Below are positions 7,466 to 28,490 of a stretch of 32,000 nucleotides of DNA, piece by piece. Position 1 is the first letter of the stretch. Each line of letters begins with the position of its first letter. A program made the translations under genes and the position numbers. A model generated the notes under the pieces. The model did not search any database, had not been told where the DNA came from, and saw only the letters and a list, made by a program, of their open reading frames with translations. The stretch is from Desulfocapsa sulfexigens DSM 10523. Its GTDB lineage: Bacteria > Desulfobacterota > Desulfobulbia > Desulfobulbales > Desulfocapsaceae. The stretch is from assembly GCF_000341395.1 (NCBI RefSeq), contig NC_020304.1, positions 1,500,001-1,532,000 of the forward strand, read 5' to 3'.

Positions 7466-7643
7466 CCTGATTACCATCGAAACTCAGCTTTGCAACCCGG
7501 AGTTGTTCCGTGTCGATTATATGGGACGCCATAAACCCATCCCTGGGGGCTCTGCTGCGGCCGTCCAGGCCGCAGATGCCCATATAATCAACACGAAAAA
7601 ACTCCTCATCAGGCGGGTAGGCTGAGGATTAGTGCTAATCAGG
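7466..7643 (+). mobile_element. MITE copy 1 (178 bp)
   Basis: Terminal inverted repeats are CCTGATTACCA ... (A)GTGCTAATCAGG. Flanking 8-mers are TGAATGAA (7458-7465) and TAAATGAA (7644-7651), matching at 7 of 8. It is about 95% identical to copy 2 and about 90% to copy 3, by eye. Confidence 0.85.
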
Positions 7644-11753: not shown

Positions 11754-11930
11754 CCTGATTACCATCGAAACTCAGCTTTGCAACCTGGAGTTGTTTCGTG
11801 TCGATTATATGGGACGCCATAAACCCATCCCTGGGGCTCTGCTGCGGCCGTCCAGGCCGCAGATGCCCATATAATCAACACGAACCAACTCCTCCTCAGA
11901 CGGGTAGGCTGAGGATTAGTGGTAATCAGG
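11754..11930 (+). mobile_element. MITE copy 2 (177 bp)
   Basis: Terminal repeats CCTGATTACCA / TGGTAATCAGG are perfect. Flanking 8-mers TAATGATT (11746-11753) and TAATGATT (11931-11938) are identical. Confidence 0.9.
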
Positions 11931-12037
11931 TAATGATTTGCTGATGCTTACCATCCAAGCTCTATCCCATTTGTTGAAGATAAATGTGAATCTTTCTTTG
12001 ACTATTGGGATTTTCTTTATGAAAAAGGTGAAAGTTT

Positions 12038-12766
12038 ATGCAGAGCCATGATGAAATTGAAGAGCAGAAAAACTCTATCTATCTGTGTGCTCCCGTTAAT
12101 GCACTGGTTGAGGGTATCTTTGAAGAAAACATTCATCTTGCAGAAGTACTTAGGCATGGTGATTTCGGACTTGGTACTTTTGATGATCTGGATGGAGAGA
12201 TGCTTATCCTCGACGGACATTGCTACCAGATAAACTCCGCCGGGAAAGTAACTGAAGTTGATGGACAAGTGTTGACCCCCTTCGCTTCGGTGACTTTTTA
12301 TAAACCGGAGAACTTTTATGAGATCAACAAGGAAACTCCATTTGATGATTTTTTAAAACAGCTCAATAGCTTTATGCCATCACCGAATCTGTTCTATGCC
12401 GTGCGTATTGAGGGTGAGTTTTCTCACATCAAAGCACGCTCCGTTCCAAAGCAGGCTAATTATCATCCGCTTACAGATATAGTTAATGAGCAGATTGTCT
12501 TTGATTTTGATAATATCTGCGGAACCGTGGCAGGCTTTTTTACACCAGAGTTCATGTCATCATTGAGCGTCCATGGACTGCATCTGCACTTTCTCTCAGA
12601 GGACTTGCAGCACGGGGGACATATCCTTGGATGTGTGCCGCGTAAAGTGAAGATTGGGGTCCAGACAATTAACCGTTTAGAGCTTACATTGCCGATGACA
12701 AAGGATTACATGGGGTGTGATTTTCACAGGGATATTAACAGGGATCTGGATAAGGTTGAAAAGTAA
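12038..12766 (+). CDS. budA: Alpha-acetolactate decarboxylase
   Basis: 242 aa. The N-terminal pattern SIYLCAPVNALVEGIFE...GDFGLGTFDDLDGEMLILDG and the HGLHLHFLS metal-binding His motif are characteristic of AlsD/BudA. Confidence 0.85.
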   Translation: MQSHDEIEEQKNSIYLCAPVNALVEGIFEENIHLAEVLRHGDFGLGTFDDLDGEMLILDGHCYQINSAGKVTEVDGQVLTPFASVTFYKPENFYEINKETPFDDFLKQLNSFMPSPNLFYAVRIEGEFSHIKARSVPKQANYHPLTDIVNEQIVFDFDNICGTVAGFFTPEFMSSLSVHGLHLHFLSEDLQHGGHILGCVPRKVKIGVQTINRLELTLPMTKDYMGCDFHRDINRDLDKVEK

Positions 12767-12916
12767 GTGTGGAATTCCTGTAACAAGATAGATTGATTTT
12801 TGTGTACTTACCAATATAGGAACATTTTTGTTACTCCTTACAGTGTTTGGGAGCTGCTCGAGAGTGTGAAATACATTGGAAATGCTAATTTCTAAGTTGA
12901 GATAAAATCAGTTATC

Positions 12917-13690
12917 ATGGAAATACTTTGGTTCAAAATCATTTCGTTGCTGGTCATTTTTGCTGCAGGCTTGTTCGGTGGACTTGCACCGACAAAAATA
13001 AGCCTCACTCCCCAGGGAAAACGAAAACTTACATTGGGGAATGCCTTTTCCGGTGGAGTTTTTCTGGGCGCGGGATTACTGCACATGCTCCCTGATGCAC
13101 GTGAAAACTTCACTGCTTTTGCAGGCGACGTTGCCTATCCCTATGTCGCTCTCATCTGTGGCGGAGGATTTCTCCTGGTGATGCTTCTGGAAAAAGCTGT
13201 TCTTGGTGGTAGCGAGGACATTGGTGCGATGTCAAAAGGACGTTCCGTCTATCCTTATTTGTTGTGCGTTATCCTTTCTGTCCATTCAATTATTGTGGGA
13301 ACATCTTTAGGGTTGGAGGCCAGTCTGGTTGCTTCAGTAGGTATATTAGTGGCGATTCTCGCCCATAAATGGGCTGCGGCTTTTGCGTTAGGTGTCAGCC
13401 TGAGGGAAAATGGTTTCTCATTGTCACTTCATGTCCGACTTATCTGCTTTTTTGCGCTGATGGCTCCTTTGGGCGTGGTTCTCGGAACAATTTTCTCGGC
13501 CCTGTTTTCAGGAAAAGCGGCACTCCTGTTTGAAGCTGTCTTTGATGCTTTAGCAGCAGGGACTTTTCTCTATGTTGCCTGCGCCGATGTTATGGAAGAA
13601 GTCTTTAGAAAATCTGGGGATAACTGGAGAAAAGTCATTCTGATTATATGTGGCTTTTTTCTCATGGCACTGATAGCAATTTGGACATGA
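12917..13690 (+). CDS. ZIP-family divalent metal transporter
   Basis: 257 aa, about 8 TM helices, a variable central loop, and conserved His/Ala-rich helices (LHMLPDA, ILAHKWAAAFALG) typical of ZIP/ZupT-like permeases. Confidence 0.7.
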   Translation: MEILWFKIISLLVIFAAGLFGGLAPTKISLTPQGKRKLTLGNAFSGGVFLGAGLLHMLPDARENFTAFAGDVAYPYVALICGGGFLLVMLLEKAVLGGSEDIGAMSKGRSVYPYLLCVILSVHSIIVGTSLGLEASLVASVGILVAILAHKWAAAFALGVSLRENGFSLSLHVRLICFFALMAPLGVVLGTIFSALFSGKAALLFEAVFDALAAGTFLYVACADVMEEVFRKSGDNWRKVILIICGFFLMALIAIWT

Positions 13691-13796
13691 GCTGAGAAAG
13701 GGTGTTTATTGCGTCGCCCGTGTGATCGGTTATATGTTGTGTCTTAATGATTCGCTGATCGCTGCTGTTAATAATAACAGTGATTCAGTGTTCAAT

Positions 13797-13837
13797 AAAA
13801 AAAACCTCCAGGCTATCGATGAGATACCCTGAAGGTT
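13797..13837 (-). terminator. Rho-independent terminator of cassette A
   Basis: On the minus-strand RNA, AACCUUCAGG - 15-nt loop - CCUGGAGGUU forms a 10-bp stem with one G-U pair. U8 follows immediately. Confidence 0.8.
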
Positions 13838-13878
13838 CTAATGCGGGACAACATCCCAAAGAATTGTTTACTTTTTTC

Positions 13879-14178
13879 CTACTTTGAAGCTGTAACCTTT
13901 GCAGGGGCCTTGTTTACATATTTAAAGAATACGGGGAAGGCGACAAAGAAGGCTACACAGAGCAGGTATTCAATACCTTTGATATGAGTGTAGTAGTCAA
14001 CCAGAGTATGCAGAGGCTTTACCATTCCTATTGCCACCATATACTGTCCGGCAAGCTCACTTACTGACCAACCAACCGATGAAAGAGCACTGGTAAGGGC
14101 TGCGCCAACCCAGAGACACATGATTGAACCGGCTGCGAGAAGTATTCTTGATCCTGTTTTTGATGTATTTTGTTTCAT
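13879..14178 (-). CDS. Small membrane protein (99 aa, about 3 TM), family unknown
   Basis: SD AAGGA lies upstream. There are hydrophobic segments ILLAAGSIMCLWVGAALTSAL and YLLCVAFFVAFPVFF. It is second in a two-gene unit bounded by a sigma54-type promoter and a terminator. The copy at 19205-19504 encodes an identical protein. Confidence 0.7.
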   Translation of the reverse strand: MKQNTSKTGSRILLAAGSIMCLWVGAALTSALSSVGWSVSELAGQYMVAIGMVKPLHTLVDYYTHIKGIEYLLCVAFFVAFPVFFKYVNKAPAKVTASK

Positions 14179-14221
14179 GGTAGTGTCCTTATCTGTATAT
14201 GTTAATTTTAGAAAGAGTGTA

Positions 14222-14416
14222 TCAGCCGATAACTGCGGTCAGGTATCCTTTAACAACATTCAAATGTCCCATGCTTATCATTGCGCTTGCAAGACAGGCA
14301 AATCCCCAGATTCCAACAAGGGCAGCCATGGTCATTCCAGCACCAAGTGCAAATGAAGAAGTTTCGTATCCAGCTTTAACTTGAGTAGCAGTTGTGGTTT
14401 GAGTGTTTGTAGTCAT
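14222..14416 (-). CDS. Small membrane protein (64 aa, Thr-rich N-terminus, Gly/Ala-rich TM segment), family unknown
   Basis: Strong SD GGAGG lies 7 nt upstream of the ATG. It contains FALGAGMTMAALVGIWGFACLASAMI. The partner copy at 19548-19742 differs by one residue, His51 versus Pro51. Confidence 0.7.
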   Translation of the reverse strand: MTTNTQTTTATQVKAGYETSSFALGAGMTMAALVGIWGFACLASAMISMGHLNVVKGYLTAVIG

Positions 14417-14474
14417 GGTGTCCTCCGTATGGGTTTGATCTAGCTAAGTTTTTCTTTTCTTTGCCCTCTATGTA

Positions 14475-14489
14475 GCAGCAACCATGCCA
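14475..14489 (-). promoter_or_regulatory. Sigma54-type (-24/-12) promoter of cassette A
   Basis: The minus strand reads TGGCAT-GGTTG-CTGC against consensus TGGCAC-N5-TTGC. The invariant GG and GC have correct spacing. It lies about 60-70 nt upstream of the ATG at 14416. Confidence 0.6.
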
Positions 14490-14781
14490 GTTTTTGTTTT
14501 TCTTGCTGTGCTTTCACGAAAAACCAGGTAACACATTGGTACAACTCTGTATTTATGGAGAATGCTGTTGGAGTTTTCTTGCGACACATATGTGCCCTGG
14601 CAGTGTGGCAAAACTCGGAACTGTAGTTTTAGGAAGAGAATGTGTGGCTTGTGTTCTACGGAAGTGTTGCAGGTCTTGCAGATAGGTGTGGAATCAGAGA
14701 ATAGAAGAAGTAAGCACTGGCAAGCCCAATAACAGTTGCCTCCCCTTTGTTCAGCTTTGCCCAGAGCCCCGCAAGTTCTGT

Positions 14782-14811
14782 TTGACTTCCAGGATTGGCG
14801 TATGATAAAAT
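14782..14811 (+). promoter_or_regulatory. Candidate sigma70 promoter of the hydrogenase operon
   Basis: TTGACT (14782-14787), N18, TAAAAT (14806-14811), with a TG two bases upstream of the -10 box. It would give a leader of about 190 nt. Confidence 0.4.
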
Positions 14812-15010
14812 TTTTCTATTGAGGTGAGTTTTTTCCAGCGCTCTGTGTGGGCAAATTAGAATTACTAAATATTAAGATCGACCATATGGTATGAAGATCT
14901 GTCTTCAATGCCTCTCTTGCATGACTCTCTAAAAGAACGGGAAGTGTACCGATAACAAACCAGCCTCTCAATTTATTATACTCTACAACCCAAATCCAGT
15001 GAGGTAAGCC

Positions 15011-16057
15011 ATGCTATTTAAGGTCTTTCCCAGAGATCAGTTGGAGATTCTCTATGACATTTTGGCAGGCCATCATTTGGTTGGGCCACAAATCATAGGG
15101 ACAGACCGGAATGGGCAAGAGTTATTCGCCTTTGATTATATCCACAGTTTTACAGAACTTAGAATCGACTTCACCTCCACCGTTCATTCCTTGAAATCTT
15201 TTGTCCTTCCTCCCCGGGAAAATCTTAGTTCCTTTGCCCTGGCGAACAATGACTGGGAGAAAAATGTTGATTTGGGCATATACAAGCCTCATGTTTTTTT
15301 CGGCCTGCACCCCTGTGATATAAATGCTTTGAACAAACTGGACAAGGTTTTAACGGGTCCTGTTTATCCTGACCCTTTTTACACCGGAAAGCGGAAAAAC
15401 ATGTTCATTATAGGAGTCAACTGTATTCCGCAACCCTGGTGTTTTTGTAAATCCATGGGCACAGATACTGTGCTTTCCGGTTTTGATATGTTCCTCACCG
15501 ATTTGGGCGATAAATACTTTGTCGAGATCCAGTCAGCCACAGCTTATGATATCCTTATGGAGCTACCCATTACCGAGCCCACCGATGAGGATCATCGCAG
15601 ATTCGTTCAGTTAATGGATGAGCGAAACAGTAAATTCACCTGTCAGGTGGATAACTCCGACCTGACCAAGATCCTTGACTTGGAATTCCAGTCCCCGGTC
15701 TGGCAGGAGTGGGGAAAACGATGTATGTCCTGTGGTACCTGCGCAAATGTATGCCCTACCTGCTACTGCTATGGAGTAACGGAGCATGTTGACCTCGATT
15801 TGAAAAGTGCCACCAAACAGAAACAACTTTACTCTTGTAATCTTATAGATTTTGCCATGGTCTCTGGGGGCCACAACTTCAGACCTGATAGTGCCTCCCG
15901 CCTCAAATACCGTTATTACCACAAGCACCGCGGATTCCAGGAGGCATACGAAGAAGCGCTCTGCGTAGGCTGTGGTCGCTGTGGCCAGGCGTGTCTTGCT
16001 GGAATTACGGTGCCGGAAGTTATCGACAGTGTTCGCCGACAGGAGGTTCCTAAATGA
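15011..16057 (+). CDS. Group-3b-type NiFe hydrogenase beta subunit (4Fe-4S cluster protein)
   Basis: 348 aa. It has the Cys motifs CMSCGTCANVCPTCYC and CVGCGRCGQAC. It is first in a beta-gamma-delta-alpha gene order like the Pyrococcus-type sulfhydrogenase. Confidence 0.75.
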   Translation: MLFKVFPRDQLEILYDILAGHHLVGPQIIGTDRNGQELFAFDYIHSFTELRIDFTSTVHSLKSFVLPPRENLSSFALANNDWEKNVDLGIYKPHVFFGLHPCDINALNKLDKVLTGPVYPDPFYTGKRKNMFIIGVNCIPQPWCFCKSMGTDTVLSGFDMFLTDLGDKYFVEIQSATAYDILMELPITEPTDEDHRRFVQLMDERNSKFTCQVDNSDLTKILDLEFQSPVWQEWGKRCMSCGTCANVCPTCYCYGVTEHVDLDLKSATKQKQLYSCNLIDFAMVSGGHNFRPDSASRLKYRYYHKHRGFQEAYEEALCVGCGRCGQACLAGITVPEVIDSVRRQEVPK

Positions 16058-16956
16058 ACAAGCTTGATTTTGTCGATGTCCTGCCTGCAAGACAGATTTC
16101 TACACGAAAATCAGACCTATCCAGTTTTGAATATAGCTATAGGGCGGAAATCACCAATGTCTATGGTTTGACCAACACTGAAAAACTGTATCAGATAAGG
16201 ATAGTCGATTCCGATCAACGCCATCAGTTTACCTTCAAACCCGGACAATTTGTGATGCTTGAATTGCCTGGCATTGGAGAAGGCCCCTTTTCTATTTCTT
16301 CATCCCCAACCCGCCATGGTGATCTGGAGTTGTGTATTCGGGCTGTAGGCAATTTGACTAACTTTCTCAGCAGAGTACCCCGGGGCACGCTCGTCGGCAT
16401 TAGCGGACCATTTGGCACCAGTTTCCCGGTTGAAGACATGGAAAACAGCGACCTGATCCTTATTGCCGGAGGCCTTGGGATTGTTCCTCTGCGTGCTCCA
16501 CTCTTTTCTATACTTGAAAATCGCAGTCGCTATAAGCAGATAGATATTATCTACGGTGCTCGTAATCCATCCGAACTTCTTTTCACCTATCAGTATCAGA
16601 TGTGGCGGCAGTTTGACATAAATCTGGAAATTATTGTCGACCAGGCCGACGAAAAGTGGCAAGGGCCTGTTGGTCTAATCACCGAAATTCTAAAACATCG
16701 ACTTGAAGCCGCCGGAAATAACCTGTCTAGCAACACCTATGCAATTGTTTGCGGACCACCTGTAATGTTCCATTTTGTTTGCGATATGCTGATCAACGCC
16801 CAGTTACCCATGCAAAAGATCTTTGTCTCTCTGGAACGGCGGATGCATTGCGGGCGCGGAAAATGCTGCCGATGTAACATCGGTGCGACCTATACCTGTC
16901 TCAGCGGACCGGTCTTTGATTACTGGTCGGTATTGAATATGAAGGAGGCCATCTAG
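16054..16956 (+). CDS. Hydrogenase gamma subunit, FAD/NAD(P)-binding oxidoreductase with a C-terminal 2Fe-2S Cys cluster
   Basis: 300 aa. ATGA overlap with the upstream gene. It has a ferredoxin-NADP-reductase-like pattern (GQFVMLELPG, GPFSISS, LIAGGLGIVPL, VCGPPVM) and the C-terminal motif CGRGKCCRCN...C. Confidence 0.8.
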   Translation: MNKLDFVDVLPARQISTRKSDLSSFEYSYRAEITNVYGLTNTEKLYQIRIVDSDQRHQFTFKPGQFVMLELPGIGEGPFSISSSPTRHGDLELCIRAVGNLTNFLSRVPRGTLVGISGPFGTSFPVEDMENSDLILIAGGLGIVPLRAPLFSILENRSRYKQIDIIYGARNPSELLFTYQYQMWRQFDINLEIIVDQADEKWQGPVGLITEILKHRLEAAGNNLSSNTYAIVCGPPVMFHFVCDMLINAQLPMQKIFVSLERRMHCGRGKCCRCNIGATYTCLSGPVFDYWSVLNMKEAI

Positions 16957-16963
16957 GGACACC

Positions 16964-17746
16964 ATGGAGAAAAGTAAAACGTATCTGGGAGTGGAAATAA
17001 AACGACCCAGGACCGCCTTTTTTGAGTTGTCATCCTGTGAGGGCTGCCAGTTACAGATTCTCAATAAAGAGGCCAGCCTCCTGAATTTTCTTGATCTTCT
17101 TGAGATTGTCAATTTCCGCGAAGCGATGTCCAATGGGAGCGATGATTACGAGATAGCTTTTGTGGAGGGCAGTGTAACCAGAGCCGATGAAGAAGAGAGA
17201 CTTCTGAAGATCCGGAAACAGGCAACAACTCTTGTAGCTCTCGGATCCTGTGCCTGCTTTGGCGGAGTGAACCAACTGAAAAATCGTTTTCATGACCTGG
17301 AGTGGGTAAAAAATGAGGTCTATGGGGGCCATCCCATAGAGACTCAGGAGGTAAGACCTCTGTCGGACTTTGTTATAGTTGATCTCTCAATATACGGCTG
17401 TCCAATCAAAAAAGAAGAAGTGGAAGAGATCGTCACTAATCTGGTGCTTGGTAAATCAATTGACCATCCACGCTATCCCGTCTGCATGGAATGTACGGCA
17501 AATGGCAACATCTGTCTCTTCAACCTGGGTGAACCATGCCTTGGGCCAGTAACCAGGGCTGGCTGTGATGCCTGGTGCCCAAATAACCGCATGGGTTGCT
17601 GGGGGTGCCGTGGACCTTCCGATGAGGCCAATTTCAGCCAGCTTCAGGAGATCATGGACAGCCACAACATCCCCAGGCAGGCCATGCTTGATCGACTCGA
17701 ATGTTTTGGTGGTTTCAGCAGTGCAATCAGGGAAATGGAAAAATAA
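16964..17746 (+). CDS. NiFe hydrogenase small (delta) subunit
   Basis: 260 aa. It has NuoB-like Cys motifs (SSCEGCQ, GSCACFGG) and a Cys-rich C-terminal region (CMECTANGNICLFNLGEPCLGPVTRAGCDAWCP...CWGCRGP). Confidence 0.85.
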   Translation: MEKSKTYLGVEIKRPRTAFFELSSCEGCQLQILNKEASLLNFLDLLEIVNFREAMSNGSDDYEIAFVEGSVTRADEEERLLKIRKQATTLVALGSCACFGGVNQLKNRFHDLEWVKNEVYGGHPIETQEVRPLSDFVIVDLSIYGCPIKKEEVEEIVTNLVLGKSIDHPRYPVCMECTANGNICLFNLGEPCLGPVTRAGCDAWCPNNRMGCWGCRGPSDEANFSQLQEIMDSHNIPRQAMLDRLECFGGFSSAIREMEK

Positions 17747-17757
17747 ACGAGGCGATC

Positions 17758-19038
17758 ATGGGTGAATCAATAAGCTGCGATATCAATATCAACCATCTGA
17801 CCAGAGTCGAGGGGCACGGTAACATCCGGATTCGCATTAAAAACGGGAAGGTGGAAAATGCAAGTTGGGATGTGGTGGAGACCCCACGCTTTTTTGAGGC
17901 CATTCTGGTGGGAAAACATTGGGAGAATGCGCCTATCCTTTGTGGGCGTATCTGCGGGATATGCTCCATCGGCCACACACTGGCATCCATAAGGGCTGTT
18001 GAAAATGCCTTTGCCATGGTTCCCAGTCTGCAGACTCAAAGACTCCGGCTACTGCTCAAGCATATGGAGACGTTACAAAGTCATATCCTCCACCTCTACT
18101 TCCTGGTAGCTCCTGACTTTCTTGGCACAGACAGTGTGCTCGAACTTATAAAACCTCATGGTGATGAAGTACAACGGGCGGCCAGGCTTAAGTTGCTGGC
18201 CAATGACGGTGGTGACTTGATAGGTGGCCGCAGACTCCATCCAACCAGAACCGTTGTGGGTGGCTTTACCATGCTACCCGATCGCATAAAACTGGCAACC
18301 CTCAGGCAACGTCTCCATGCTGCACTGGCCGACCTCAACAAGACAGCAGAGCTCTTTGGCTCCTTTGCCATCCCAGATTTTACCCGAGAGACCGAGTTTG
18401 TTTCCCTGAAAAGCGATGGCAATTACCCTTTTATCGGTGGACAACTGGTCTCCAGTGACGGAGTGCTCAGAGAGGAAGAGGAGTACCTGACCATGAGTAA
18501 TGAATATATGGTCAGTCATTCCACTTCTAAATGGAGCAAACTCTCAAGACCAAGCCTGGCAGTGGGTGCTCTGGCCAGGATAAATAACAACTTTGCCAGC
18601 CTTCACCCTCATGCTCAGGATATTGCCAATAATTTAGGCCTCCACCCGGTCAGTCACAACCCATTTATGAACAATGTTGCACAGCTTGTGGAATGTGTTC
18701 ATGTTGTTCAGGATTCAATTTCACTTATTGACGAGTTGCTGGGGAGTGAGTGGCAGGAGCCTCGCCAAACTGTCACACCGAGGGCAGGTGCGGGAACTGG
18801 AGCCGTGGAAGTTCCCCGGGGAATTCTCTATCACTGGTATCAGTTTGACAAGGATGGTCGAATCACCAGGGCTGATTGCGTCATCCCCACCAGTCAGAAT
18901 AACGCCAATATTCACTACGATATCATTGCTCTTGCGCAGAAACTTGCCGCCCAGGGTAAGGACGATCAGGAAATTCGTTTGCTGGCCGAGATGCTTGTCC
19001 GATCCTATGATCCCTGCATTTCCTGCTCGGTTCATTAA
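17758..19038 (+). CDS. NiFe hydrogenase large (alpha) subunit
   Basis: ATG at 17758 has GAGG about 6 nt upstream. The track start at 17701 overlaps the small-subunit gene. The N-terminal Ni-binding motif is RICGICSIGH (RxCGxCxxxH) and the C-terminal motif is DPCISCSVH (DPCxxCxxH), followed directly by the stop. Confidence 0.9.
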   Translation: MGESISCDININHLTRVEGHGNIRIRIKNGKVENASWDVVETPRFFEAILVGKHWENAPILCGRICGICSIGHTLASIRAVENAFAMVPSLQTQRLRLLLKHMETLQSHILHLYFLVAPDFLGTDSVLELIKPHGDEVQRAARLKLLANDGGDLIGGRRLHPTRTVVGGFTMLPDRIKLATLRQRLHAALADLNKTAELFGSFAIPDFTRETEFVSLKSDGNYPFIGGQLVSSDGVLREEEEYLTMSNEYMVSHSTSKWSKLSRPSLAVGALARINNNFASLHPHAQDIANNLGLHPVSHNPFMNNVAQLVECVHVVQDSISLIDELLGSEWQEPRQTVTPRAGAGTGAVEVPRGILYHWYQFDKDGRITRADCVIPTSQNNANIHYDIIALAQKLAAQGKDDQEIRLLAEMLVRSYDPCISCSVH

Positions 19039-19122
19039 TAAATTACGGTTGTGTATCCAATGCTGGCATAATTCAGACACCTGTCGATGGCGATTGTAAA
19101 TAACAGTGATTCAGTGTTCAAT

Positions 19123-19163
19123 AAAAAAAACCTCCAGGCTATCGATGAGATACCCTGAAGGTT
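19123..19163 (-). terminator. Rho-independent terminator of cassette B
   Basis: Same stem and U8 tract as at 13797-13837. Confidence 0.8.
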
Positions 19164-19204
19164 CTTATGCGGGACAACATCCCAAAGAATTGTTTACTTT
19201 TTTC

Positions 19205-19504
19205 CTACTTTGAAGCTGTAACCTTTGCAGGGGCCTTGTTTACATATTTAAAGAATACGGGGAAGGCGACAAAGAAGGCCACACAGAGCAGGTATTCAAT
19301 ACCTTTGATATGAGTGTAGTAGTCAACCAGAGTATGCAGAGGCTTTACCATTCCTATTGCCACCATATACTGTCCGGCAAGCTCACTTACTGACCAACCA
19401 ACCGATGAAAGAGCACTGGTAAGGGCTGCGCCAACCCAGAGACACATGATTGAACCGGCTGCGAGAAGTATTCTTGATCCTGTTTTTGATGTATTTTGTT
19501 TCAT
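19205..19504 (-). CDS. Small membrane protein (99 aa), duplicate of 13879-14178
   Basis: The protein is identical to copy A. There is one synonymous difference, at 19280. Confidence 0.7.
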   Translation of the reverse strand: MKQNTSKTGSRILLAAGSIMCLWVGAALTSALSSVGWSVSELAGQYMVAIGMVKPLHTLVDYYTHIKGIEYLLCVAFFVAFPVFFKYVNKAPAKVTASK

Positions 19505-19547
19505 GGTAGTGTCCTTATCTGTATATGTTAATTTTAGAAAGAGTGTA

Positions 19548-19742
19548 TCAGCCGATAACTGCGGTCAGGTATCCTTTAACAACATTCAAAGGTCCCATGC
19601 TTATCATTGCGCTTGCAAGACAGGCAAATCCCCAGATTCCAACAAGGGCAGCCATGGTCATTCCAGCACCAAGTGCAAATGAAGAAGTTTCGTATCCAGC
19701 TTTAACTTGAGTAGCAGTTGTGGTTTGAGTGTTTGTAGTCAT
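19548..19742 (-). CDS. Small membrane protein (64 aa), duplicate of 14222-14416
   Basis: It is identical to copy A except Pro51 instead of His51 (19591). Confidence 0.7.
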   Translation of the reverse strand: MTTNTQTTTATQVKAGYETSSFALGAGMTMAALVGIWGFACLASAMISMGPLNVVKGYLTAVIG

Positions 19743-19800
19743 GGTGTCCTCCGTATGGGTTTGATCTAGCTAAGTTTTTCTTTTCTTTGCCCTCTATGTA

Positions 19801-19815
19801 GCAGCAACCATGCCA
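19801..19815 (-). promoter_or_regulatory. Sigma54-type promoter of cassette B
   Basis: Identical sequence to 14475-14489. Confidence 0.6.
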
Positions 19816-20149
19816 GTTTTTGTTTTTCTTGCTGTGCTTTTGTGGAAACAAGTGCAAAGTACTGGTATAACACTGTATTTGTGAGTGGCGTTGCTGGAAA
19901 TCTCTTGCGACACTTGTGTGTTCCGGTAGTGTGGTAAAACTCGGAACTGTAGTTTTGGGACGAGAATGTGTAGTTTAAATTCTACGGTTGTGTTGCAGGT
20001 CTTGCGGATAGGTGTGGCAACGAGAAGTAATTTGTTTATTTTATTGCATTACTGTTTTTTTTAGGAAATACATTTCAGTTATCAGATCTTCGATTAGAGA
20101 ATGATTTTGATCGTCTTGAAGAATCACCTTAAACAAGGAGAAAGAAAAA

Positions 20150-21598
20150 ATGTCTAAAGCTGATATCGGCCTGATCGGACTGGCTGTTATGGGACAGAAT
20201 CTGGTGCTGAACATCAACGACCACGACTTTACGGCGTCCGTGTATAACCGTACAATATCGAAGGTGGATTCCTTTCTGGATGGTCGTGCCAGGGGGACAA
20301 ATGTCATTGGCGCCCATTCAATTGAAGAGTTGGTCGGCACGCTCAAAAAACCGCGTCGGGTAATGCTGATGGTCAAGGCAGGAGCTGTGGTTGACTCCTT
20401 TATTGAACAGTTGGTGCCATATCTTGAGACAGGTGACATTATTATTGATGGTGGGAATTCACTCTATAGTGATACCAACCGCCGCAGCACTACTCTTGCT
20501 GAAAATGGTATCCTTTATATAGGCACTGGCATTTCCGGTGGTGAAGAGGGGGCCCGCAAGGGGCCATCCATAATGCCGGGTGGCAATCCCGAGGCATGGC
20601 CCCATGTGAAGGATATCTTTCAGGCCATCGCCGCCAAAGTCGATGGGCAGCCATGCTGTGACTGGGTTGGTGAGGGAGGAGCCGGACATTTTGTGAAGAT
20701 GGTGCATAATGGCATCGAATATGGTGATATGCAGCTTATTTGTGAGGCCTACGATTTTATGCGTCGGGGACTTGGAATGAGTGAAGAGAGCATGCAGAAG
20801 GTGTTTTCCCGTTGGAATAAGGGACTGCTCGATTCCTACTTGATAGAGATCACGTCCCATATTCTGGGCTTCAAGGATGACGATGGTATACCTTTAACAG
20901 AAAAGATTCTTGATACCGCAGGCCAGAAAGGTACCGGGAAATGGACCGGGATAAATGCCCTTGATCTGGGTATTCCCCTTACCCTGATCAGTGAAGCGGT
21001 ATTTGCCCGCTGTCTCTCTGCAATGAAACCGGAACGGGTAAAGGCGGCTGCCATTTTCAAGGGACCAGTTCCTGGTTTTACAGGTGATACAGACGAGTTG
21101 GTCAATGACGTACATGATGCCCTGTATGCTGCTAAGATAATTTCCTACGCCCAGGGGTACATGCTGCTGAGGGAAGCAGCAAAGGAACATGGCTGGAATT
21201 TAAACTACGGCAGCATTGCCCTTATGTGGAGAGGCGGCTGTATTATCCGCAGTGCCTTTCTTGCCAATATTAAACAGGCCTTTGATGCAAATCCAGATCT
21301 GGAAAATTTGCTGCTGGACGACTTTTTTCGTTCTGCTATTCAGTCAGCTCAGGCGGGATGGCGCAGAATTGCGGTTAAGGCCATCGAATTTGGTATTCCA
21401 ATTCCGGCCATTTCCTCAGGTCTTTCTTATTATGACGGCTATCGCAGTGAGCGTTTACCGGCTAACCTCCTTCAGGCCCAGCGGGATTATTTTGGAGCAC
21501 ATACCTATGAGCGGATAGATCAGCCTCGTGGTGATTTTTTTCACACCGACTGGATCGGGAGTGGCGGAAAGGTATCCTCAACTACTTATACTGTCTAG
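20150..21598 (+). CDS. gnd: 6-phosphogluconate dehydrogenase (decarboxylating)
   Basis: 482 aa. It has the N-terminal Rossmann motif IGLIGLAVMGQNLVLN and the conserved blocks GGNSLYSDT, GISGGEEGARKGPSIMPGG, HFVKMVHNGIEYGDMQLI and AQRDYFGAHTYER. Confidence 0.95.
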   Translation: MSKADIGLIGLAVMGQNLVLNINDHDFTASVYNRTISKVDSFLDGRARGTNVIGAHSIEELVGTLKKPRRVMLMVKAGAVVDSFIEQLVPYLETGDIIIDGGNSLYSDTNRRSTTLAENGILYIGTGISGGEEGARKGPSIMPGGNPEAWPHVKDIFQAIAAKVDGQPCCDWVGEGGAGHFVKMVHNGIEYGDMQLICEAYDFMRRGLGMSEESMQKVFSRWNKGLLDSYLIEITSHILGFKDDDGIPLTEKILDTAGQKGTGKWTGINALDLGIPLTLISEAVFARCLSAMKPERVKAAAIFKGPVPGFTGDTDELVNDVHDALYAAKIISYAQGYMLLREAAKEHGWNLNYGSIALMWRGGCIIRSAFLANIKQAFDANPDLENLLLDDFFRSAIQSAQAGWRRIAVKAIEFGIPIPAISSGLSYYDGYRSERLPANLLQAQRDYFGAHTYERIDQPRGDFFHTDWIGSGGKVSSTTYTV

Positions 21599-21625
21599 TT
21601 ATAAACAAATTTTAAGGAGGACAGG

Positions 21626-21721
21626 ATGGGTAGGATCATTCTAAGAATAATTTTAAATATTTTATTCTTTTCGATGGTTCTTGCTACTGATAACGGTCTT
21701 GTCTGTGTCAAAGGTAGGTAA
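21626..21721 (+). CDS. Possible small hydrophobic peptide (31 aa)
   Basis: Not in the ORF track because it is under 60 aa. AAGGAGG lies 5 nt upstream of the ATG. The product is MGRIILRIILNILFFSMVLATDNGLVCVKGR, with stop TAA at 19719+2002=21719-21721. No other support. Confidence 0.3.
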   Translation: MGRIILRIILNILFFSMVLATDNGLVCVKGR

Positions 21722-21840
21722 AGTGTAAAAGAACCAGAAGCGTGAGGTTTTAGCTGTTTATATTGACAGACTTTCCAGAAACACTTGTTGCAAGGGGACA
21801 ATAGGTGTTGCTGGACCCTTCATGCTCACAAGGATAAGAA

Positions 21841-23307
21841 ATGACAAAATATGATTATGATATTGCTGTGATTGGTGGTGGTGCAGCGGGACTGACCGTT
21901 AGTGCGGGAGCAGCTCAACTCGGGGCTAAAACACTCATCATTGAAAAAGAATCGGCCCTGGGAGGTGACTGCCTTCATTATGGTTGTGTGCCCTCAAAAA
22001 CCCTGGTCAAATCGGCACATGTATATCACACCATGCAGCGGGCCACAGATTTTGGTTTGCCGGGAATCGAATTGCCACCCGTTGATTTCACAAAAGTTGC
22101 GGCCCGTATCAAATCCGTGATAGAAAAGATTCAAGTCCATGATTCGGTGGAGAGATTCTGTAAACTGGGAGCTAAGGTGGAATTTGGTGCGCCCAGGTTT
22201 GTTGATGAGCATGCGGTGGAACTCAACGGTAAAAGGGTCTCTGCCAAACACTGGGTGGTGGCCACGGGTTCCTCATCGTCAACGCCTCCCTTTCCTGGCC
22301 TTGAGAGTACGCCCTATATAACCAATAAGGAAATCTTCTCCCTGGCCTCTCTGCCAAAATCGCTCATTGTTTTGGGTGCAGGTCCCATTGCAGTTGAGAT
22401 GGCCCAGGCTTTTTCCCGATTGGGAAGCGAAGTGACCGTGATCCAGCGTTCAGACCAGATCCTCAGTAAAGAAGATAAGGATATGGCAGATATTGCCATG
22501 GTAGCCATGAAGGATGAGGGCGTTCGTTTTTATCTGGGAGCCAGTATCAAACAGATAAAAGATCTGGGTAATGAACGACAGGTTGAAATCACCGATGCCA
22601 ATGGAGAGGATGTGACTCTCAAAGCATCGACGCTTCTGGTGGCTCTCGGGCGGCAACCTAACATAGAAGGTCTTGGTCTTGAAGAGATAGGAGTTGAAAT
22701 GACCAGGAAAGGGATTGTGGTGGACAACCGTATCCGCACTAACCATTCACATATCTATGCTCCCGGCGATATTAATGGTGCTTACCAATTCACTCATGCT
22801 GCAGGATATGAAGGGGGCATTGTGGTGAGCAATGCTATTTTTCATCTACCACGTAAGGCCGATTATACCTGGATGCCATGGGCCACTTATTGTGATCCGG
22901 AACTTGCATCCATTGGCATGAATGAAAAGGCAGCTAAGGCAGCTGGAATCGACTACCAGATCTGGACGGAGAACTTTGCAGATAATGATCGGGCTCTGGC
23001 TGAAGATGAGGGCCGTGGCAGGATCAAAATGATACTCGATGCTTCTGAAAAACCACTTGGTGTTCAGATAGTTGGTCCTAGAGCCGGAGATCTGCTGGGT
23101 GAATGGATTGCCATCTTAAACGGCAAGGTGAAGCTCTCGACACTTGCGGGTGCCATCCATCCTTATCCGACTCTGGTGGAGATCAACAAGCGGGTTGCGG
23201 GAACATACTTTTCGCCTAAGATCTTTTCACCAACCATCAAAAAAGGATTAAAATTCTTCTTTAATCTCAAAGGAGCCGCCTGCGATCCATCATCGGATAT
23301 CCGTTGA
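21841..23307 (+). CDS. Pyridine nucleotide-disulfide oxidoreductase (dihydrolipoyl dehydrogenase / mercuric reductase-like family)
   Basis: 488 aa. It has the FAD motif VIGGGAAG, the redox-active disulfide GGDCLHYGCVPSK, the NAD motif VLGAGPIAVEMA and a C-terminal dimerisation-domain pattern (HPYPT). It lacks a metal-binding N-domain and a C-terminal Cys pair, so I do not call it MerA. Confidence 0.85.
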   Translation: MTKYDYDIAVIGGGAAGLTVSAGAAQLGAKTLIIEKESALGGDCLHYGCVPSKTLVKSAHVYHTMQRATDFGLPGIELPPVDFTKVAARIKSVIEKIQVHDSVERFCKLGAKVEFGAPRFVDEHAVELNGKRVSAKHWVVATGSSSSTPPFPGLESTPYITNKEIFSLASLPKSLIVLGAGPIAVEMAQAFSRLGSEVTVIQRSDQILSKEDKDMADIAMVAMKDEGVRFYLGASIKQIKDLGNERQVEITDANGEDVTLKASTLLVALGRQPNIEGLGLEEIGVEMTRKGIVVDNRIRTNHSHIYAPGDINGAYQFTHAAGYEGGIVVSNAIFHLPRKADYTWMPWATYCDPELASIGMNEKAAKAAGIDYQIWTENFADNDRALAEDEGRGRIKMILDASEKPLGVQIVGPRAGDLLGEWIAILNGKVKLSTLAGAIHPYPTLVEINKRVAGTYFSPKIFSPTIKKGLKFFFNLKGAACDPSSDIR

Positions 23308-23323
23308 GAGGAGGAGAGGATTT

Positions 23324-24019
23324 ATGAATACAAACCTCATTAAGAAAATAGCAATGGTGGTTGCAGGAGCTGTTCTGGTGGCCATTTTTTTTGGACTGGA
23401 TCTCCAGCAGTATCTGACTCTTGATTATCTGAAAGAGTCCCAGGCACGTTTTGCAGATTTGTATCATGCAAAGCCAGTTCTGGTGATCGGTGCCTATATG
23501 GTGATTTATATCCTGATGACTGCGCTTTCTCTGCCGGGTGCTGTTATCCTTACTCTGGCGGGTGGGGCCCTCTTTGGGTTTGTCACAGGGCTTATTGTGG
23601 TCTCATTTGCCTCTACCATAGGTGCTACCCTTGCCTGTTTTGTGGCTCGTTTTGTACTACGTGACTGGGTGCAGAAAAAGTTTGGAGACAAACTCGGCAC
23701 TATTAATGAAGGGATTGCCAGAGAAGGAGCCTTTTACCTCTTTACTCTGCGTCTGATCCCGGTTTTTCCCTTCTTTGTTATTAATCTGGTTATGGGGTTG
23801 ACCAGAATGTCGCTCCTCACTTTTTACTGGGTCTCTCAAATTGGGATGCTGGCCGGGACGGCTGTCTTTGTTAATGCCGGAAAGGAATTGGCTAAAATTG
23901 ACTCGTTGTCAGGGATCCTCTCTCCGGGGGTGCTCGGTTCCTTTGTTATTCTTGGGTTGTTTCCTTTAGTTGTTAAAAAAGTGGTTACCTTTATCCAAGG
24001 GAGAAAAAATGAAACATAA
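23324..24019 (+). CDS. TVP38/TMEM64 (DedA/SNARE-associated-like) membrane protein
   Basis: 231 aa and multi-TM, with the pattern LPGAVILTLAGGALFG...LRLIPVFPFFVINLVMGLT typical of the family. This family is commonly found next to, or fused with, the upstream type of flavoprotein. Confidence 0.8.
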   Translation: MNTNLIKKIAMVVAGAVLVAIFFGLDLQQYLTLDYLKESQARFADLYHAKPVLVIGAYMVIYILMTALSLPGAVILTLAGGALFGFVTGLIVVSFASTIGATLACFVARFVLRDWVQKKFGDKLGTINEGIAREGAFYLFTLRLIPVFPFFVINLVMGLTRMSLLTFYWVSQIGMLAGTAVFVNAGKELAKIDSLSGILSPGVLGSFVILGLFPLVVKKVVTFIQGRKNET

Positions 24020-24107
24020 ACCAGGAAATGACTCTATAATTTGGTTCGAAGAGTATGGAGACAGGCTGTGCCGATGGTCAGAGTACATGTCAACGACGCT
24101 GATGCTT

Positions 24108-24674
24108 TCAGCTTTTAGGTAAATAATTTTTCATGATTTCATAAATAGCAGGTCGATTTTCCCGTATCTCATCCGCGCTCAAACCTTCCAGTGAATGAGG
24201 GTATTTAAGCCAGTCTGCGGTTTCGTGTACAGTATAATCCGGTGCCTTGCCTGTCTGATTACGAGATGGCTTGTAATAGGGTACGGCAATGCGGATATCT
24301 TCAGGAGTGTTTAAGCGTAATCTGCGTTGTAATTCATTGATAATGGCTTCAACCGAGCGGCCCGTGTCAAAGACATCGTCTACAATCAAGAGCCGATCGC
24401 TGTGTTGAAGGTTTTTTACCAGATAGTTGAGTCCAAACAGCTTTATTTCACGTGTTTTATTGTCAATCCCACTGTAGGAGGAGGTACGGATTGCGATATT
24501 GTCAGATACTATGCCGTGAAAAGCCAGAAACTCCTGAACGGCGATACCTATGGGGACCCCGCCACGCCATACGGCGATGATAAACGTGGGCCGAAAGCCA
24601 CTATCAAGGATCTGACGACCAAGCTTAAAGGAATCTTCCAGCAGACCCTGGGCGGTGAGGTAGACTTTATCCAT
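24108..24674 (-). CDS. Type-I phosphoribosyltransferase (purine PRTase-like)
   Basis: 188 aa, with the PRPP-binding motif LLIVDDVFDTGRS. Confidence 0.8.
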   Translation of the reverse strand: MDKVYLTAQGLLEDSFKLGRQILDSGFRPTFIIAVWRGGVPIGIAVQEFLAFHGIVSDNIAIRTSSYSGIDNKTREIKLFGLNYLVKNLQHSDRLLIVDDVFDTGRSVEAIINELQRRLRLNTPEDIRIAVPYYKPSRNQTGKAPDYTVHETADWLKYPHSLEGLSADEIRENRPAIYEIMKNYLPKS

Positions 24675-24834
24675 TGCTAACCTTAAAGTTTTCTTATCGA
24701 AGGCTCATTCATCCTGTAACCACTGTAAATATCTATTTTATACAAGTAATGTTCTAAAAAGGGTATCTTAAAAGCCATGATTCTACTGTGTAATAACGAA
24801 CTTTTTCTGGAGAGTATTATCCAAGGGCGAATGT

Positions 24835-25407
24835 ATGAACAAAATTTTTCTTGATGAAGAAACCCTGATTCTCGATTCCTTCAAACTGGGAGTGCAGGTT
24901 TTTGAAAGCGGCTTTCGGCCCACGTTTATCGTGGGACTGTGGCGGGGAGGCAGTTCCGTTGCCATTTATGTTCAGGAATGTCTGCAGACGCTGGGGGTGG
25001 AGACAAATCATATCTCACTTCGTACATCCTATCGCGGCCAGCCCTCTTATCAGGAGGCGGTCGCAGCGGCTAATGCTGAGATAAGGGTTCACGGTACCCA
25101 GTATCTTCTTGAAAACCTCAACGCTGACGATGCGCTGCTGCTGGTAGACGATGTCTTCAGCACCGGTAAAAGTATAGAAGCAGTCATAAACCGGTTGAGC
25201 CGTCATCTGAAACGCAATATGCCCAGGGAGGTCAAGATTGCCACTCTCTGGGATAGACCTTCTTTCAGGGAATCTGAGATAGATCCGGATTTCTACCAGC
25301 ATCGAACGGAGGACTGGCTGGTTTTTCCTTACGAAATGAGTGGTCTCACAATGGATGAAATCCAGGAGCACAAACCTTTTCTTGTCCCATTCCTGCAGAA
25401 TGGTTGA
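24835..25407 (+). CDS. Type-I phosphoribosyltransferase paralogue, first gene of the kinase/cyclase operon
   Basis: 190 aa, with the PRPP motif LLLVDDVFSTGKS. It aligns with the divergent neighbour over its full length, roughly 35-45% identical by eye. Its stop, TGA at 25405-25407, overlaps the TTG at 25404 of the next ORF. Confidence 0.8.
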   Translation: MNKIFLDEETLILDSFKLGVQVFESGFRPTFIVGLWRGGSSVAIYVQECLQTLGVETNHISLRTSYRGQPSYQEAVAAANAEIRVHGTQYLLENLNADDALLLVDDVFSTGKSIEAVINRLSRHLKRNMPREVKIATLWDRPSFRESEIDPDFYQHRTEDWLVFPYEMSGLTMDEIQEHKPFLVPFLQNG

Positions 25408-26387
25408 ATAATTCAATGAATTATTGCGTCTATGGTCTGCTGCTTGAGAGTAATGTAGAGCTCTCCGGACTTCAATCTTGCAAGGCAGCAGGTGAGAAAA
25501 TTGATGTAACCGCTACAATGGGGGACTTTCCGGGCGAGATAGAACGGCTTTTCCACCACTCCATGCCGCAAAGGTATTATGCTGAACCGGGATATATAGA
25601 GGGTGATCCACCCCGTCTTGTTGTAAATACTCTGGCTGATGGCCAATATTATCATTTTTCCTATGCGGTTGGGGTACAGTTTGTTTGTGATAAACTGGCA
25701 ACGAGTGTATGGGGAAGGTGGCAGGATCCTTTGACCCTTATGGATGCTACCCTTTTTCTGGTGGGTCCGATTCTTGGCTTTATGCTGCGACTGCAGGGTG
25801 TTACATGTTTGCATGCAAGTGGGGTTGTTATAGAAGGACGAGCGCTGGCTATCACAGGGCCGTCGGGCAGTGGGAAATCTACCCTGGCTGCAGCATTTGC
25901 AGCGGCTGGATTTCCCATATTAAGTGATGATATCTTGCCGTTGCAGTTTGAACAGGGAAGCCCGCAGGCACTCCCGGGATATTCCCGTCTACGTCTTTAT
26001 CCAAGATCTTTTAAGGGCATCACTCAATTACCCGACGATTTACCCGCTCTTTCACCACACTGGAGTAAGTGCTATCTTGACGTTGGTTCCGCTCCCTATT
26101 CATTTCACCACCTTTCCATACCCCTGCACGTTGTTTATTTTCTGGATTGGAAGAAGAGTGACGCCGCTGTTTCCCAAATAATGCCCGTAAAACCAATTTC
26201 TGCTGTGCCTCTCCTGGCTGCAAACACCTATCGCAATGAGGTACTGGATTCTGACATGAGAAAAAAAGAATTTTTTTTCCTCAGCCAGCTTGCTTCAAAA
26301 GTTACTGTAAGAACAATTCGGATGCGTGATGATCTCCATGGGATATCAAATCTTGTTGATGTGATCCGCAAGGATTTTAAGGGCTAG
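25404..26387 (+). CDS. HPr-kinase-like P-loop protein (lasso-peptide kinase-like)
   Basis: 327 aa. CLHASGVVIEGRALAITGPSGSGKSTLAAAFAAAGFPILSDD is the HPrK/P-type Walker A region. The start is either TTG 25404 or ATG 25416. Confidence 0.75.
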   Translation: MNNSMNYCVYGLLLESNVELSGLQSCKAAGEKIDVTATMGDFPGEIERLFHHSMPQRYYAEPGYIEGDPPRLVVNTLADGQYYHFSYAVGVQFVCDKLATSVWGRWQDPLTLMDATLFLVGPILGFMLRLQGVTCLHASGVVIEGRALAITGPSGSGKSTLAAAFAAAGFPILSDDILPLQFEQGSPQALPGYSRLRLYPRSFKGITQLPDDLPALSPHWSKCYLDVGSAPYSFHHLSIPLHVVYFLDWKKSDAAVSQIMPVKPISAVPLLAANTYRNEVLDSDMRKKEFFFLSQLASKVTVRTIRMRDDLHGISNLVDVIRKDFKG

Positions 26388-26394
26388 AAACTCT

Positions 26395-28233: not shown

Positions 28234-28257
28234 TTGATAGCAAAAAGTGGTGACAGC

Positions 28258-28410
28258 TCAGGATGCGTGGTATGGATGTTCGCCATTGTCTCTTGGCGGA
28301 CCACCTTTGTTCATTCGGGTAAGCTCTTTTACTGAGCCGAAGACTTTCAGTTTGGGGCAGTGATAGTTCTTTCTGGTTGTCTTCTCTTGTTTTTTAGGTG
28401 TTGGCTTCAA
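28258..28410 (-). CDS. Candidate lasso-type RiPP precursor peptide (50 aa: 32-aa leader plus 18-aa core MNKGGPPRDNGEHPYHAS)
   Basis: TTG at 28410 has GGGGA 7 nt upstream. The leader YHCPKLKVFGSVKELTR fits YxxPxLx3Gx5Tx exactly, with Thr at -2. The core has Asp at position 9 and a C-terminal Ser. A near-consensus promoter lies inside the upstream part of the 72-aa track ORF. Confidence 0.6.
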   Translation of the reverse strand: MKPTPKKQEKTTRKNYHCPKLKVFGSVKELTRMNKGGPPRDNGEHPYHAS

Positions 28411-28462
28411 GTTTATTTCCCCATATGTGCCAGTTGGTATTCCTTCCCGTCTTCCCTTAACA

Positions 28463-28490
28463 TATATATTAAACAAATTTGTTTTGTCAA
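28463..28490 (-). promoter_or_regulatory. Near-consensus sigma70 promoter of the precursor gene, with a palindromic spacer
   Basis: The minus strand reads TTGACA (28490-28485), N16, TATATA (28468-28463). The spacer contains the perfect 14-bp palindrome AAACAAATTTGTTT (28471-28484). Confidence 0.6.

Follow-up and report, generated by a model that had tools for sequence, protein, structure and literature searches.

Introduction

Why should a metabolic operon lie exactly between two long and nearly identical direct repeats? The question is raised by a 32,000-nucleotide stretch of the Desulfocapsa sulfexigens DSM 10523 chromosome (NC_020304.1, positions 1,500,001 to 1,532,000; hereafter the window), in which a group-3b-type [NiFe]-hydrogenase operon is flanked by two copies of a 0.92-kb sequence. 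D. sulfexigens is the model marine sulfur disproportionator. An earlier note on this DNA, made from the sequence alone, had read the arrangement (R-X-R, where R is the repeat and X the unique block between the copies) as what integration of a circular R+X molecule by homologous recombination would produce, or as a duplication of R around an acquired block, and the near-identity of the copies implied a recent event. Our analysis points to another history. We consider it likely that the locus is an old R-X-R of two sigma-54-driven gene cassettes around the hydrogenase operon, homogenised separately in each lineage, and that it forms a deletable unit.

Results

Geometry and reality of the duplication

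A position-by-position comparison bears out the layout given in the earlier note. Repeat A (13773-14692) and repeat B (19099-20018) have the same orientation at a constant offset of 5326 bp, which leaves the copies 4.4 kb apart. In the core, 13773-14514 against 19099-19840, 739 of 742 positions match, and the only mismatches are at 13840, 13954 and 14265. The adjoining segments, 14515-14692 and 19841-20018, are ~74% identical (132/178), and beyond both repeat ends similarity is at background. The repeats enclose only 14693-19098, as had been claimed; here the four hydrogenase genes are preceded by 318 bp of upstream sequence and followed by a 60-bp spacer.

The source genome was finished with 454 reads, fosmid ends and Sanger gap closure, using clone libraries of 2 kb and 40 kb (PMC3739170). 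In an independent short-read assembly (Logan SRR25712206), three contigs are 100% identical to the window, at 11905-13802 (L012), 14605-19128 (L093) and 19890-29406 (L094), and jointly reproduce all four of the repeat/unique junctions. These contigs end ~30 nt inside the identical core or within the diverged upstream segments. Counted from the left border, the differences between the copies are at 67, 181 and 492 nt, and the diverged segment begins 250 nt after the last of them. Because this spacing of 67-311 nt falls within reads of ~400 nt, the copies could be phased and are no simple copy-paste. The duplication in DSM 10523 is real and not an assembly artefact of this record, the possibility against which the earlier note had asked that it be checked.

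Anatomy of the repeat

Each repeat is a complete minus-strand transcription unit, neither noncoding DNA nor an insertion sequence (IS). The earlier note had overlooked that the repeat carries two genuine genes with a promoter and a terminator of their own; on the minus strand the order is upstream blocks, promoter, a gene for 64 amino acids (aa), a 99-aa gene and the terminator. Cassette copy A (13773..14692, minus strand) comprises UWK_01336-01337 (AGF77897.1, AGF77898.1) and their control regions. Folding places its intrinsic terminator, a 16-bp interrupted hairpin followed by U8, at 13797..13839 on the minus strand (-22.6 kcal/mol, z = -3.3; 0 of 200 shuffles fold equally well); read on the plus strand, the hairpin is directly downstream of the ZIP metal transporter gene. 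By translation, the 99-aa gene (UWK_01336, 13879..14178, minus) encodes two predicted hydrophobic helices, and the 64-aa gene (UWK_01337, 14222..14416, minus), which has a GGAGG ribosome-binding site, encodes one. A sigma-54-type -24/-12 element, TGGCATGGTTGCTGCT, lies at 14474..14489 on the minus strand and reads CTGGCAT-GGTTG-CTGCT in the cassette. Farther upstream, the control region of copy A (14515..14692, minus), which is the ~74%-identical part of the repeat, holds family-conserved blocks that start exactly at the right repeat border (CCACACCTATC...). Cassette copy B (19099..20018, minus; UWK_01342-01343 and control regions) has the same parts on the same strand, with the terminator at about 19123-19165, the 99-aa gene (UWK_01342) at 19205-19504, the 64-aa gene (UWK_01343) at 19548-19742, the sigma-54-type site at 19800-19815 and the upstream region at 19841-20018.

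We found the -24/-12 element by motif search and conservation, and it is the conservation that carries the sigma-54-type reading, since the motif occurs 4 times in the window against 3.2 expected, which is not above chance. Upstream of the 64-aa gene, CTGGCAY-N5-yTGC is kept in register in cassettes from five different genomic contexts, and both the GG-N10-GC geometry and the position of the element are constant across these five unrelated neighbourhoods. The cassette is probably sigma-54-controlled from this predicted promoter. Family searches of the window proteins found no enhancer-binding-protein gene in the 32 kb.

The 99-aa gene differs from its counterpart on contig L001, described below, by 16 synonymous and no nonsynonymous codon changes, and from that on contig L003 by 31 synonymous and 2 nonsynonymous changes. 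This ratio argues that the gene is under strong purifying selection. Neither small protein gave a match in Pfam or in PDB sequence searches, and PF28260 (DVU_0533) was recorded as a weak match to the 99-aa protein. The C-terminal helix of this protein is weakly HmcD-like (NF045712, 21.8 bits against a cutoff of 34, residues 57-84 only); we rejected HmcD membership, as the score is below the curated cutoff and no hmc genes stand beside any examined cassette. Rfam searches at gathering thresholds and tRNA scans returned nothing in the window, which rules out the repeat as an RNA gene. A transposon was also considered and set aside, because the repeat proteins match no transposase family and a search for terminal inverted repeats was negative. 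The outer flanks differ and form no target-site duplication (...GTTAATAAT before 13773, TTTGTTTAT... after 20018).

One of the three differences between the copies, 14265 in copy A against 19591 in copy B, gives copy A the change P51H in its 64-aa protein; every other copy examined has proline there. This could be a mildly harmful substitution that conversion has so far failed to remove, or an error of sequencing.

A dispersed cassette family

The 99-aa protein has at least 555 homologues. Identity across the family is 78-98%, and the members with an organism name belong to Desulfocapsa or to other Desulfobulbales-type Thermodesulfobacteriota. The pair of 64-aa and 99-aa genes stands alone among unrelated neighbour genes on contigs L003/L004, L009/L010 and L008, and D. 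sulfexigens has at least one further paralogue, UWK_02539. On L008 (79-797) two cassettes lie tail to tail, with a plus-strand 99-aa gene followed by two minus-strand genes, a partial 99-aa gene and then a 64-aa gene, so that cassette copies also occur side by side.

Among 80 hydrogenase loci from GTDB species representatives, a set that lacks this operon and in which the best alpha subunit is only 73% identical, none has a cassette nearby. Together with two cassette-free loci of relatives (L095 and L096, see below), this argues against any conserved link in function that would tie the cassette to the hydrogenase. The repeat begins and ends where a conserved functional module does, a module that runs from the far upstream block to the terminator. 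Similarity would stop at such borders whatever the original event had been. The exact bracketing on which the earlier note leaned is thus present as described, but the argument from it to a circle is weakened.

The layout is shared with a diverged lineage

We next compared the locus with that of a second lineage, represented by the metagenome-assembled genome (MAG) GCA_975001335.1, about 6% diverged from DSM 10523. One of its contigs, L098 (4902 bp), aligns to window 14577-19421 at 92.6% identity and thereby spans both junctions; it comprises the copy A upstream segment, all of X and then 322 bp of copy B. Another, L181 (63.9 kb), carries the 6-phosphogluconate dehydrogenase (6PGD) gene that follows repeat B in the window, and ends 284 bp upstream of it, inside the upstream region of a cassette. 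The first 165 nt of L181 and the first 165 nt of L098 are 97.6% identical. Taken together, the two contigs show that both junctions and the chromosomal position are common to the two lineages. Identity between the lineages is 92.6-94% in X and 93-94% in the flanks. Since X is as diverged as its flanks and the junctions are shared, it is simplest to suppose that the common ancestor already had the R-X-R. The left repeat border lies about 10 nt apart in the two lineages.

The recency that the near-identity of the copies had seemed to imply is not supported by this comparison: the junctions and the locus are shared, X has diverged as far as the flanks, and the copies carry lineage-specific substitutions. 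In addition, a PLSDB plasmid search gave no match to any part of the locus.

Probable concerted evolution of the two copies

Sites were classified over four sequences, the two copies of DSM 10523 (A1, B1) and their lineage-2 counterparts, as lineage-type, where A1 and B1 agree and differ from both lineage-2 sequences, or as position-type. Over 13773-14090 there are 19 lineage-type sites and no position-type site, and over 14540-14692 there are 13 and 1. The 19 sites of the left part, common to both copies, include synonymous sites of the 99-aa gene and noncoding sites of the terminator flank. Identity by position, A-type or B-type in both lineages, is confined to the last ~25 nt before the right border. 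With 32 lineage-type sites against 1 position-type site, the 99.6% identity of the core points to homogenisation of old repeats and not to recency.

The extent of the homogenised tract differs between the lineages. In DSM 10523 it covers 742 bp; in lineage 2 it takes in almost all of the ~0.9 kb, and the upstream segments of the two copies there are ~98% alike, as against 74% in DSM 10523. Within 14540-14692, copy A has 20 private substitutions and copy B 9, while lineage 2 has almost none between its copies. Such a pattern, with tract end-points that differ by lineage, is the signature of concerted evolution. Gene conversion and cycles of unequal crossing-over, in which amplification is followed by reduction, would both fit it equally well.

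Contigs that lack the hydrogenase

Two contigs from two different JGI metagenomes, L001 (9.4 kb, from metagenome 3300001419) and L101 (14.1 kb, contig JGI10211J34971_10002800), have the gene order aldC-ZIP-one cassette-6PGD, without the hydrogenase. They are 99.7% identical to each other and 98.2-98.4% identical to L181 of the lineage-2 MAG. Their single cassette has the ZIP-side left flank and a B-type right end, and this is the exact product expected from recombination between the repeats. Because X seems to be ancestral, these contigs would represent a deletion and not an unoccupied site. The one-cassette, hydrogenase-free locus that the earlier note had suggested looking for in relatives can thus be seen, with the caveat that misassembly may have produced it. 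In favour of a true deletion, a protein search found no lineage-2 alpha subunit in the JGI metagenomes, the sole such cluster coming from NCBI and Logan. On balance we think it probable, if well short of certain, that the deletion allele is real. Of the earlier proposal that the operon can be lost or amplified through the repeats, loss is plausible in view of the putative deletion contigs, but no amplification was observed.

Two further contigs from JGI sister samples (3300009480 and 3300009451), L002 (1-206) and L097 (3146-3343), are 99.3-99.4% identical to the window up to an abrupt switch, at window positions 20008 and 18864, to unrelated sequence of 55-64% guanine-plus-cytosine (GC) content. 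They are probably chimeric metagenome contigs and were not taken as a sign of rearrangement.

The hydrogenase operon

Block X (14693..19098) consists of a spacer, the hydrogenase promoter and leader, four plus-strand genes and the 60-bp spacer. A candidate sigma-70-type promoter at 14782..14811 on the plus strand (TTGACT, 18-nt spacer, TAAAAT, extended -10 TG; score 10/12) has a -35/-10 block that is also preserved ahead of the orthologous operons of L098, L095 and L096, three other loci. The genes, all on the plus strand, encode beta, the 4Fe-4S, AsrA-like subunit (UWK_01338, 15011..16057; Fer4_22, ShyB 7e-74, HydB 1.5e-62), gamma, which binds FAD and NAD(P) by its predicted domains (UWK_01339, 16054..16956; NAD_binding_1, FAD_binding_6, DHODB_Fe-S_bind), delta, the small subunit (UWK_01340, 16964..17746; Oxidored_q6, 5.5e-23), and alpha, the large subunit (UWK_01341, AGF77902.1, 17758..19038; NiFeSe_Hases, 426/426 identity over its 426 aa). 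The alpha reading frame is open from 17701 (445 aa), and the annotated start at 17758 lies 19 codons later. Alpha has the motifs RICGICSIGH and, at its C-terminus, DPCISCSVH-stop, which fit RxCGxCxxxH and DPCxxCxxH. Its profile matches are better to HydA (2.2e-83) and ShyA (2.2e-73) than to FrhA (5e-39) and VhuA (9e-39), which places the subunits nearer to the sulfhydrogenases than to groups 3a, 3c, 3d, 1 or 4. The scores are under the Thermococcales equivalog cutoffs (281 against 880 bits), meaning similarity at group level and not equivalence to the archaeal enzyme. Gene order, domains, motifs and the best matches to sulfhydrogenases support a group-3b-type [NiFe]-hydrogenase and, with the conserved -35/-10 block, agree with the beta-gamma-delta-alpha operon with its own promoter that had been proposed.

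No hyp or endopeptidase gene is found in the 32-kb window, and the remark that maturation genes do not accompany the operon holds on that scale. The large subunit stops exactly at the His of DPCISCSVH (19012-19038, the end of hydA), with no C-terminal extension. In established hydrogenase maturation, a subunit without a C-terminal extension requires no endopeptidase cleavage. There being no extension to cleave, the absence of an endopeptidase gene beside the operon would be explained. Homologues measure 424-426 aa, which suggests that the extension-less end is the rule throughout this bacterial clade.

In the genome paper the operon is called a 'sulfur reductase/hydrogenase' that might link the oxidation of H2 to the reduction of sulfur; the flanking repeats go unmentioned (PMC3739170). 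In the literature we found the operon mentioned only in that 2013 paper.

Relatives with a ~83%-identical operon carry it at other loci, with no cassettes alongside. On L095 it lies between a response regulator gene (left) and PsiE (right), and on L096 between a cation efflux gene (left) and HTH/YoeB (right); homology to the window begins at the promoter and ends with the alpha stop codon. Judging from these neighbourhoods, the operon has relocated at least once in this genus.

Flanking genes and the wider window

To the left of the locus lies the ZIP metal transporter gene (UWK_01335, AGF77896.1; 12917..13690, plus strand), and to the right the 6PGD gene (AGF77905.1; 20150..21598, plus strand), divergent from cassette B. 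The complete order is UWK_01335 (ZIP), UWK_01336-01337 (copy A), UWK_01338-01341 (hydrogenase), UWK_01342-01343 (copy B) and then directly 6PGD. Records AGF77902.1 and AGF77905.1 of D. sulfexigens DSM 10523 match the alpha subunit and 6PGD of the window at 100% identity.

An IS110-family transposase gene (DEDD_Tnp_IS110 and Transposase_20; 1672-2706, minus strand) lies 11 kb from the repeats and is unrelated to them. An intergenic element of ~180 nt occurs in three copies, at 7468-7643, 11755-11930 and 29313-29490. It has terminal inverted repeats (CCTGATTACCA...TGGTAATCAGG) and nested internal palindromes, folds as single-stranded DNA at -44.7 kcal/mol (z = -6.45) and has no Rfam match. Contigs of SRR25712206 end within copies of this element, which implies that it is multi-copy genome-wide. 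It looks like a palindromic repeat of the miniature inverted-repeat transposable element (MITE) or repetitive extragenic palindromic (REP) type. The copy upstream of aldC on L101 is nearer to the 7468 copy than an orthologue should be.

Two divergent phosphoribosyltransferase paralogues (24108-24674, minus; 24835-25407, plus) have near their starts the arms of a 77-nt inverted repeat (24559-24635 and 24874-24950, 74% complementary). Beside them, the comparison of L181 with window 25582-28566 shows ~3 kb missing from the lineage-2 MAG and present in L101 of the same lineage. This segment holds an HprK-related kinase-like gene (25404-26387) and an asparagine-synthase/lasso-cyclase-like gene (26395-28233) and is a second presence/absence polymorphism in this neighbourhood. 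Identity to L181 reaches 97.6% over window 29625-32000, whereas in other parts it is about 94%.

Discussion

We propose that the repeats are two copies of a self-contained, probably sigma-54-driven operon for two small membrane proteins, from a family dispersed in Desulfocapsa, and that these copies in direct orientation came to flank a group-3b-type [NiFe]-hydrogenase operon that has a separate promoter. This arrangement would already have existed in the common ancestor of DSM 10523 and the ~6%-diverged lineage. Later homogenisation within each lineage, by gene conversion or by unequal-crossover cycles, would have kept a long and perfect homology. Homologous recombination across such a stretch, presumably dependent on RecA, could in turn delete or amplify a 5326-bp unit of one cassette and the hydrogenase operon, and a deletion of this kind appears to have happened in some members of the sister lineage. 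The arrangement may have begun, anciently, with a single-crossover integration or with a duplication.

Several points weigh against this account. Lineage 2 is known from contig ends only, with no complete A2 or B2 copy, and the site-pattern test spans about 470 of the 920 bp. The 20 private upstream sites of copy A fall outside this account; they could reflect conversion from a third paralogue, such as UWK_02539, or divergence tied to the intergenic region shared with the hydrogenase promoter, and no similar source for the segment was found among the other cassettes fetched. L001 and L101 come from older assemblies, and an assembler that passed through the collapsed ~0.9-kb repeat, or joined contigs across it, would have produced the same contig. 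All 8 of the 8 ambiguous bases of L101 fall in the 99-aa gene (2451-2522), mostly spaced by multiples of three, which suggests that more than one cassette variant, a diverged paralogue or strain variants, was collapsed there. Finally, the four junction types are identical for the integrated form and for a one-cassette chromosome accompanied by an R-X circle.

The last point, together with the breaking of the short-read contigs at the repeat, is what can be said for an artefact or another topology, namely a one-cassette chromosome plus an R-X circle or tandem array, or a collapsed repeat that was duplicated. The finishing with 2-kb and 40-kb clone libraries, the three copy differences that ~400-nt reads can phase, and the fact that a 5.3-kb circle would carry no replication gene leave this only a very slight probability. 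It is even harder to credit that the copies are two old, independent paralogues kept alike by purifying selection alone, with no sequence exchange. The proteins are indeed extremely conserved (78-98% for the 99-aa protein across the family) and the repeat borders coincide with functional borders, but the identity reaches synonymous sites, the intergenic spacer, the leader and the terminator flank, and the 19 lineage-type sites of the left part, synonymous and noncoding ones among them, occur in both copies. A recent acquisition, in which an R+X circle integrated by a single crossover into a resident cassette and the 99.6% identity reflects youth, is largely refuted by L098 and L181, and we regard it as very improbable. 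The same junctions at the same locus in a ~6%-diverged lineage, the match between X and flank divergence, the lineage-specific changes shared by the copies and the empty plasmid search all speak against it, and an adjoining segment of 178 bp at only 74% identity is unlike a recent 920-bp duplication. In its favour are the direct repeats that bracket the insert exactly, the single-cassette site in a relative, and the other loci of the operon in more distant relatives (L095, L096), so that it has moved at some time.

A further possibility is horizontal spread: from an ancestral ZIP-R-6PGD, R+X may have entered lineage 1 and part of lineage 2 separately via cassette recombination. The X-less contigs within lineage 2 would suit such a history, and the cassettes are widespread and conserved enough to provide portable homology. 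Both insertions must then have given identical junctions, including the 77-nt and 58-nt spacers, and the position-specific last ~25 nt are common to both lineages; moreover, X-to-X divergence equals flank divergence, as vertical descent predicts. We therefore hold separate entry to be unlikely. A bolder extension, in which the cassettes act as portable homology by which operons are integrated, excised and amplified in turn and pass from one Desulfocapsa genome to another at cassette copies, is quite unlikely in our estimate, as is its weaker variant, in which the two small membrane proteins work together with the hydrogenase, perhaps by anchoring it to the membrane. If portable homology were at work, it would amount to transposase-free gain and loss of a metabolic module, and the hydrogenase-plus and hydrogenase-minus alleles of lineage 2 would be a standing polymorphism that this process keeps up.

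Under the account we prefer, an ancestral R-X-R homogenised within lineages, the hydrogenase operon sits in a recombination-prone unit, and its presence may vary between strains, even within cultures, and be lacking in some natural relatives. This bears on physiology, on metagenome-based trait inference and on assembly, in that MAG contigs break or mis-join at the locus. In a clade rich in uncultured members, the locus also offers a small, clean case of neighbouring repeats that evolve together, and it draws attention to a very conserved, multi-copy, probably sigma-54-controlled pair of small membrane-protein genes that is uncharacterised.

The locus belongs to a well-known class, in which long direct repeats make the intervening DNA deletable or amplifiable and evolve in concert. 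What is particular here is that the repeat is an operon, probably sigma-54-controlled, for two small, highly conserved membrane proteins and the intervening DNA probably a complete hydrogenase transcription unit; an intact allele and an apparent deletion allele can both be found in public data. The enzyme itself resembles the Pyrococcus furiosus hydBGDA sulfhydrogenase in its beta-gamma-delta-alpha order, domains and Ni-binding motifs, but it is bacterial, scores far below the Thermococcales cutoffs, and its large subunit ends at the His of DPCxxCxxH.

Other repeat-bounded loci provide the closest parallels. In the AUD elements of Streptomyces lividans, repeats of ~1 kb enclose a unit of 4.7 kb, and enterobacteria have duplications flanked by rrn operons or by IS. 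As in these systems, ~1-kb direct repeats surround a block of a few kilobases, and pop-out to one hybrid repeat or tandem amplification is expected. Here, however, the repeats are a functional two-gene operon and not an IS or an rRNA operon, and no amplification was seen, only a putative deletion allele in a related lineage. Like a Campbell-type integration, the locus has R-X-R geometry and a single-R 'empty' site in a relative (L001/L101, possibly assembly paths), but it shows neither recency nor foreign composition, has no replicon or integrase gene and no known circle, and predates the ~6% divergence. In common with a composite transposon (IS-X-IS), the operon lies between two copies of a genome-dispersed element; the repeats differ in having neither transposase nor terminal inverted repeats, no duplicated target site surrounds them, and one repeat stays behind at the 'empty' site. 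In Salmonella, tufA and tufB undergo concerted evolution by gene conversion. As with these genes, paralogues within a genome are closer than orthologues between genomes, and the tracts have sharp ends and are lineage-specific. The cassettes differ from tufA and tufB in being direct copies only 4.4 kb apart, for which unequal crossing-over would be an equally good route to homogenisation, with deletion of the hydrogenase operon as a by-product.

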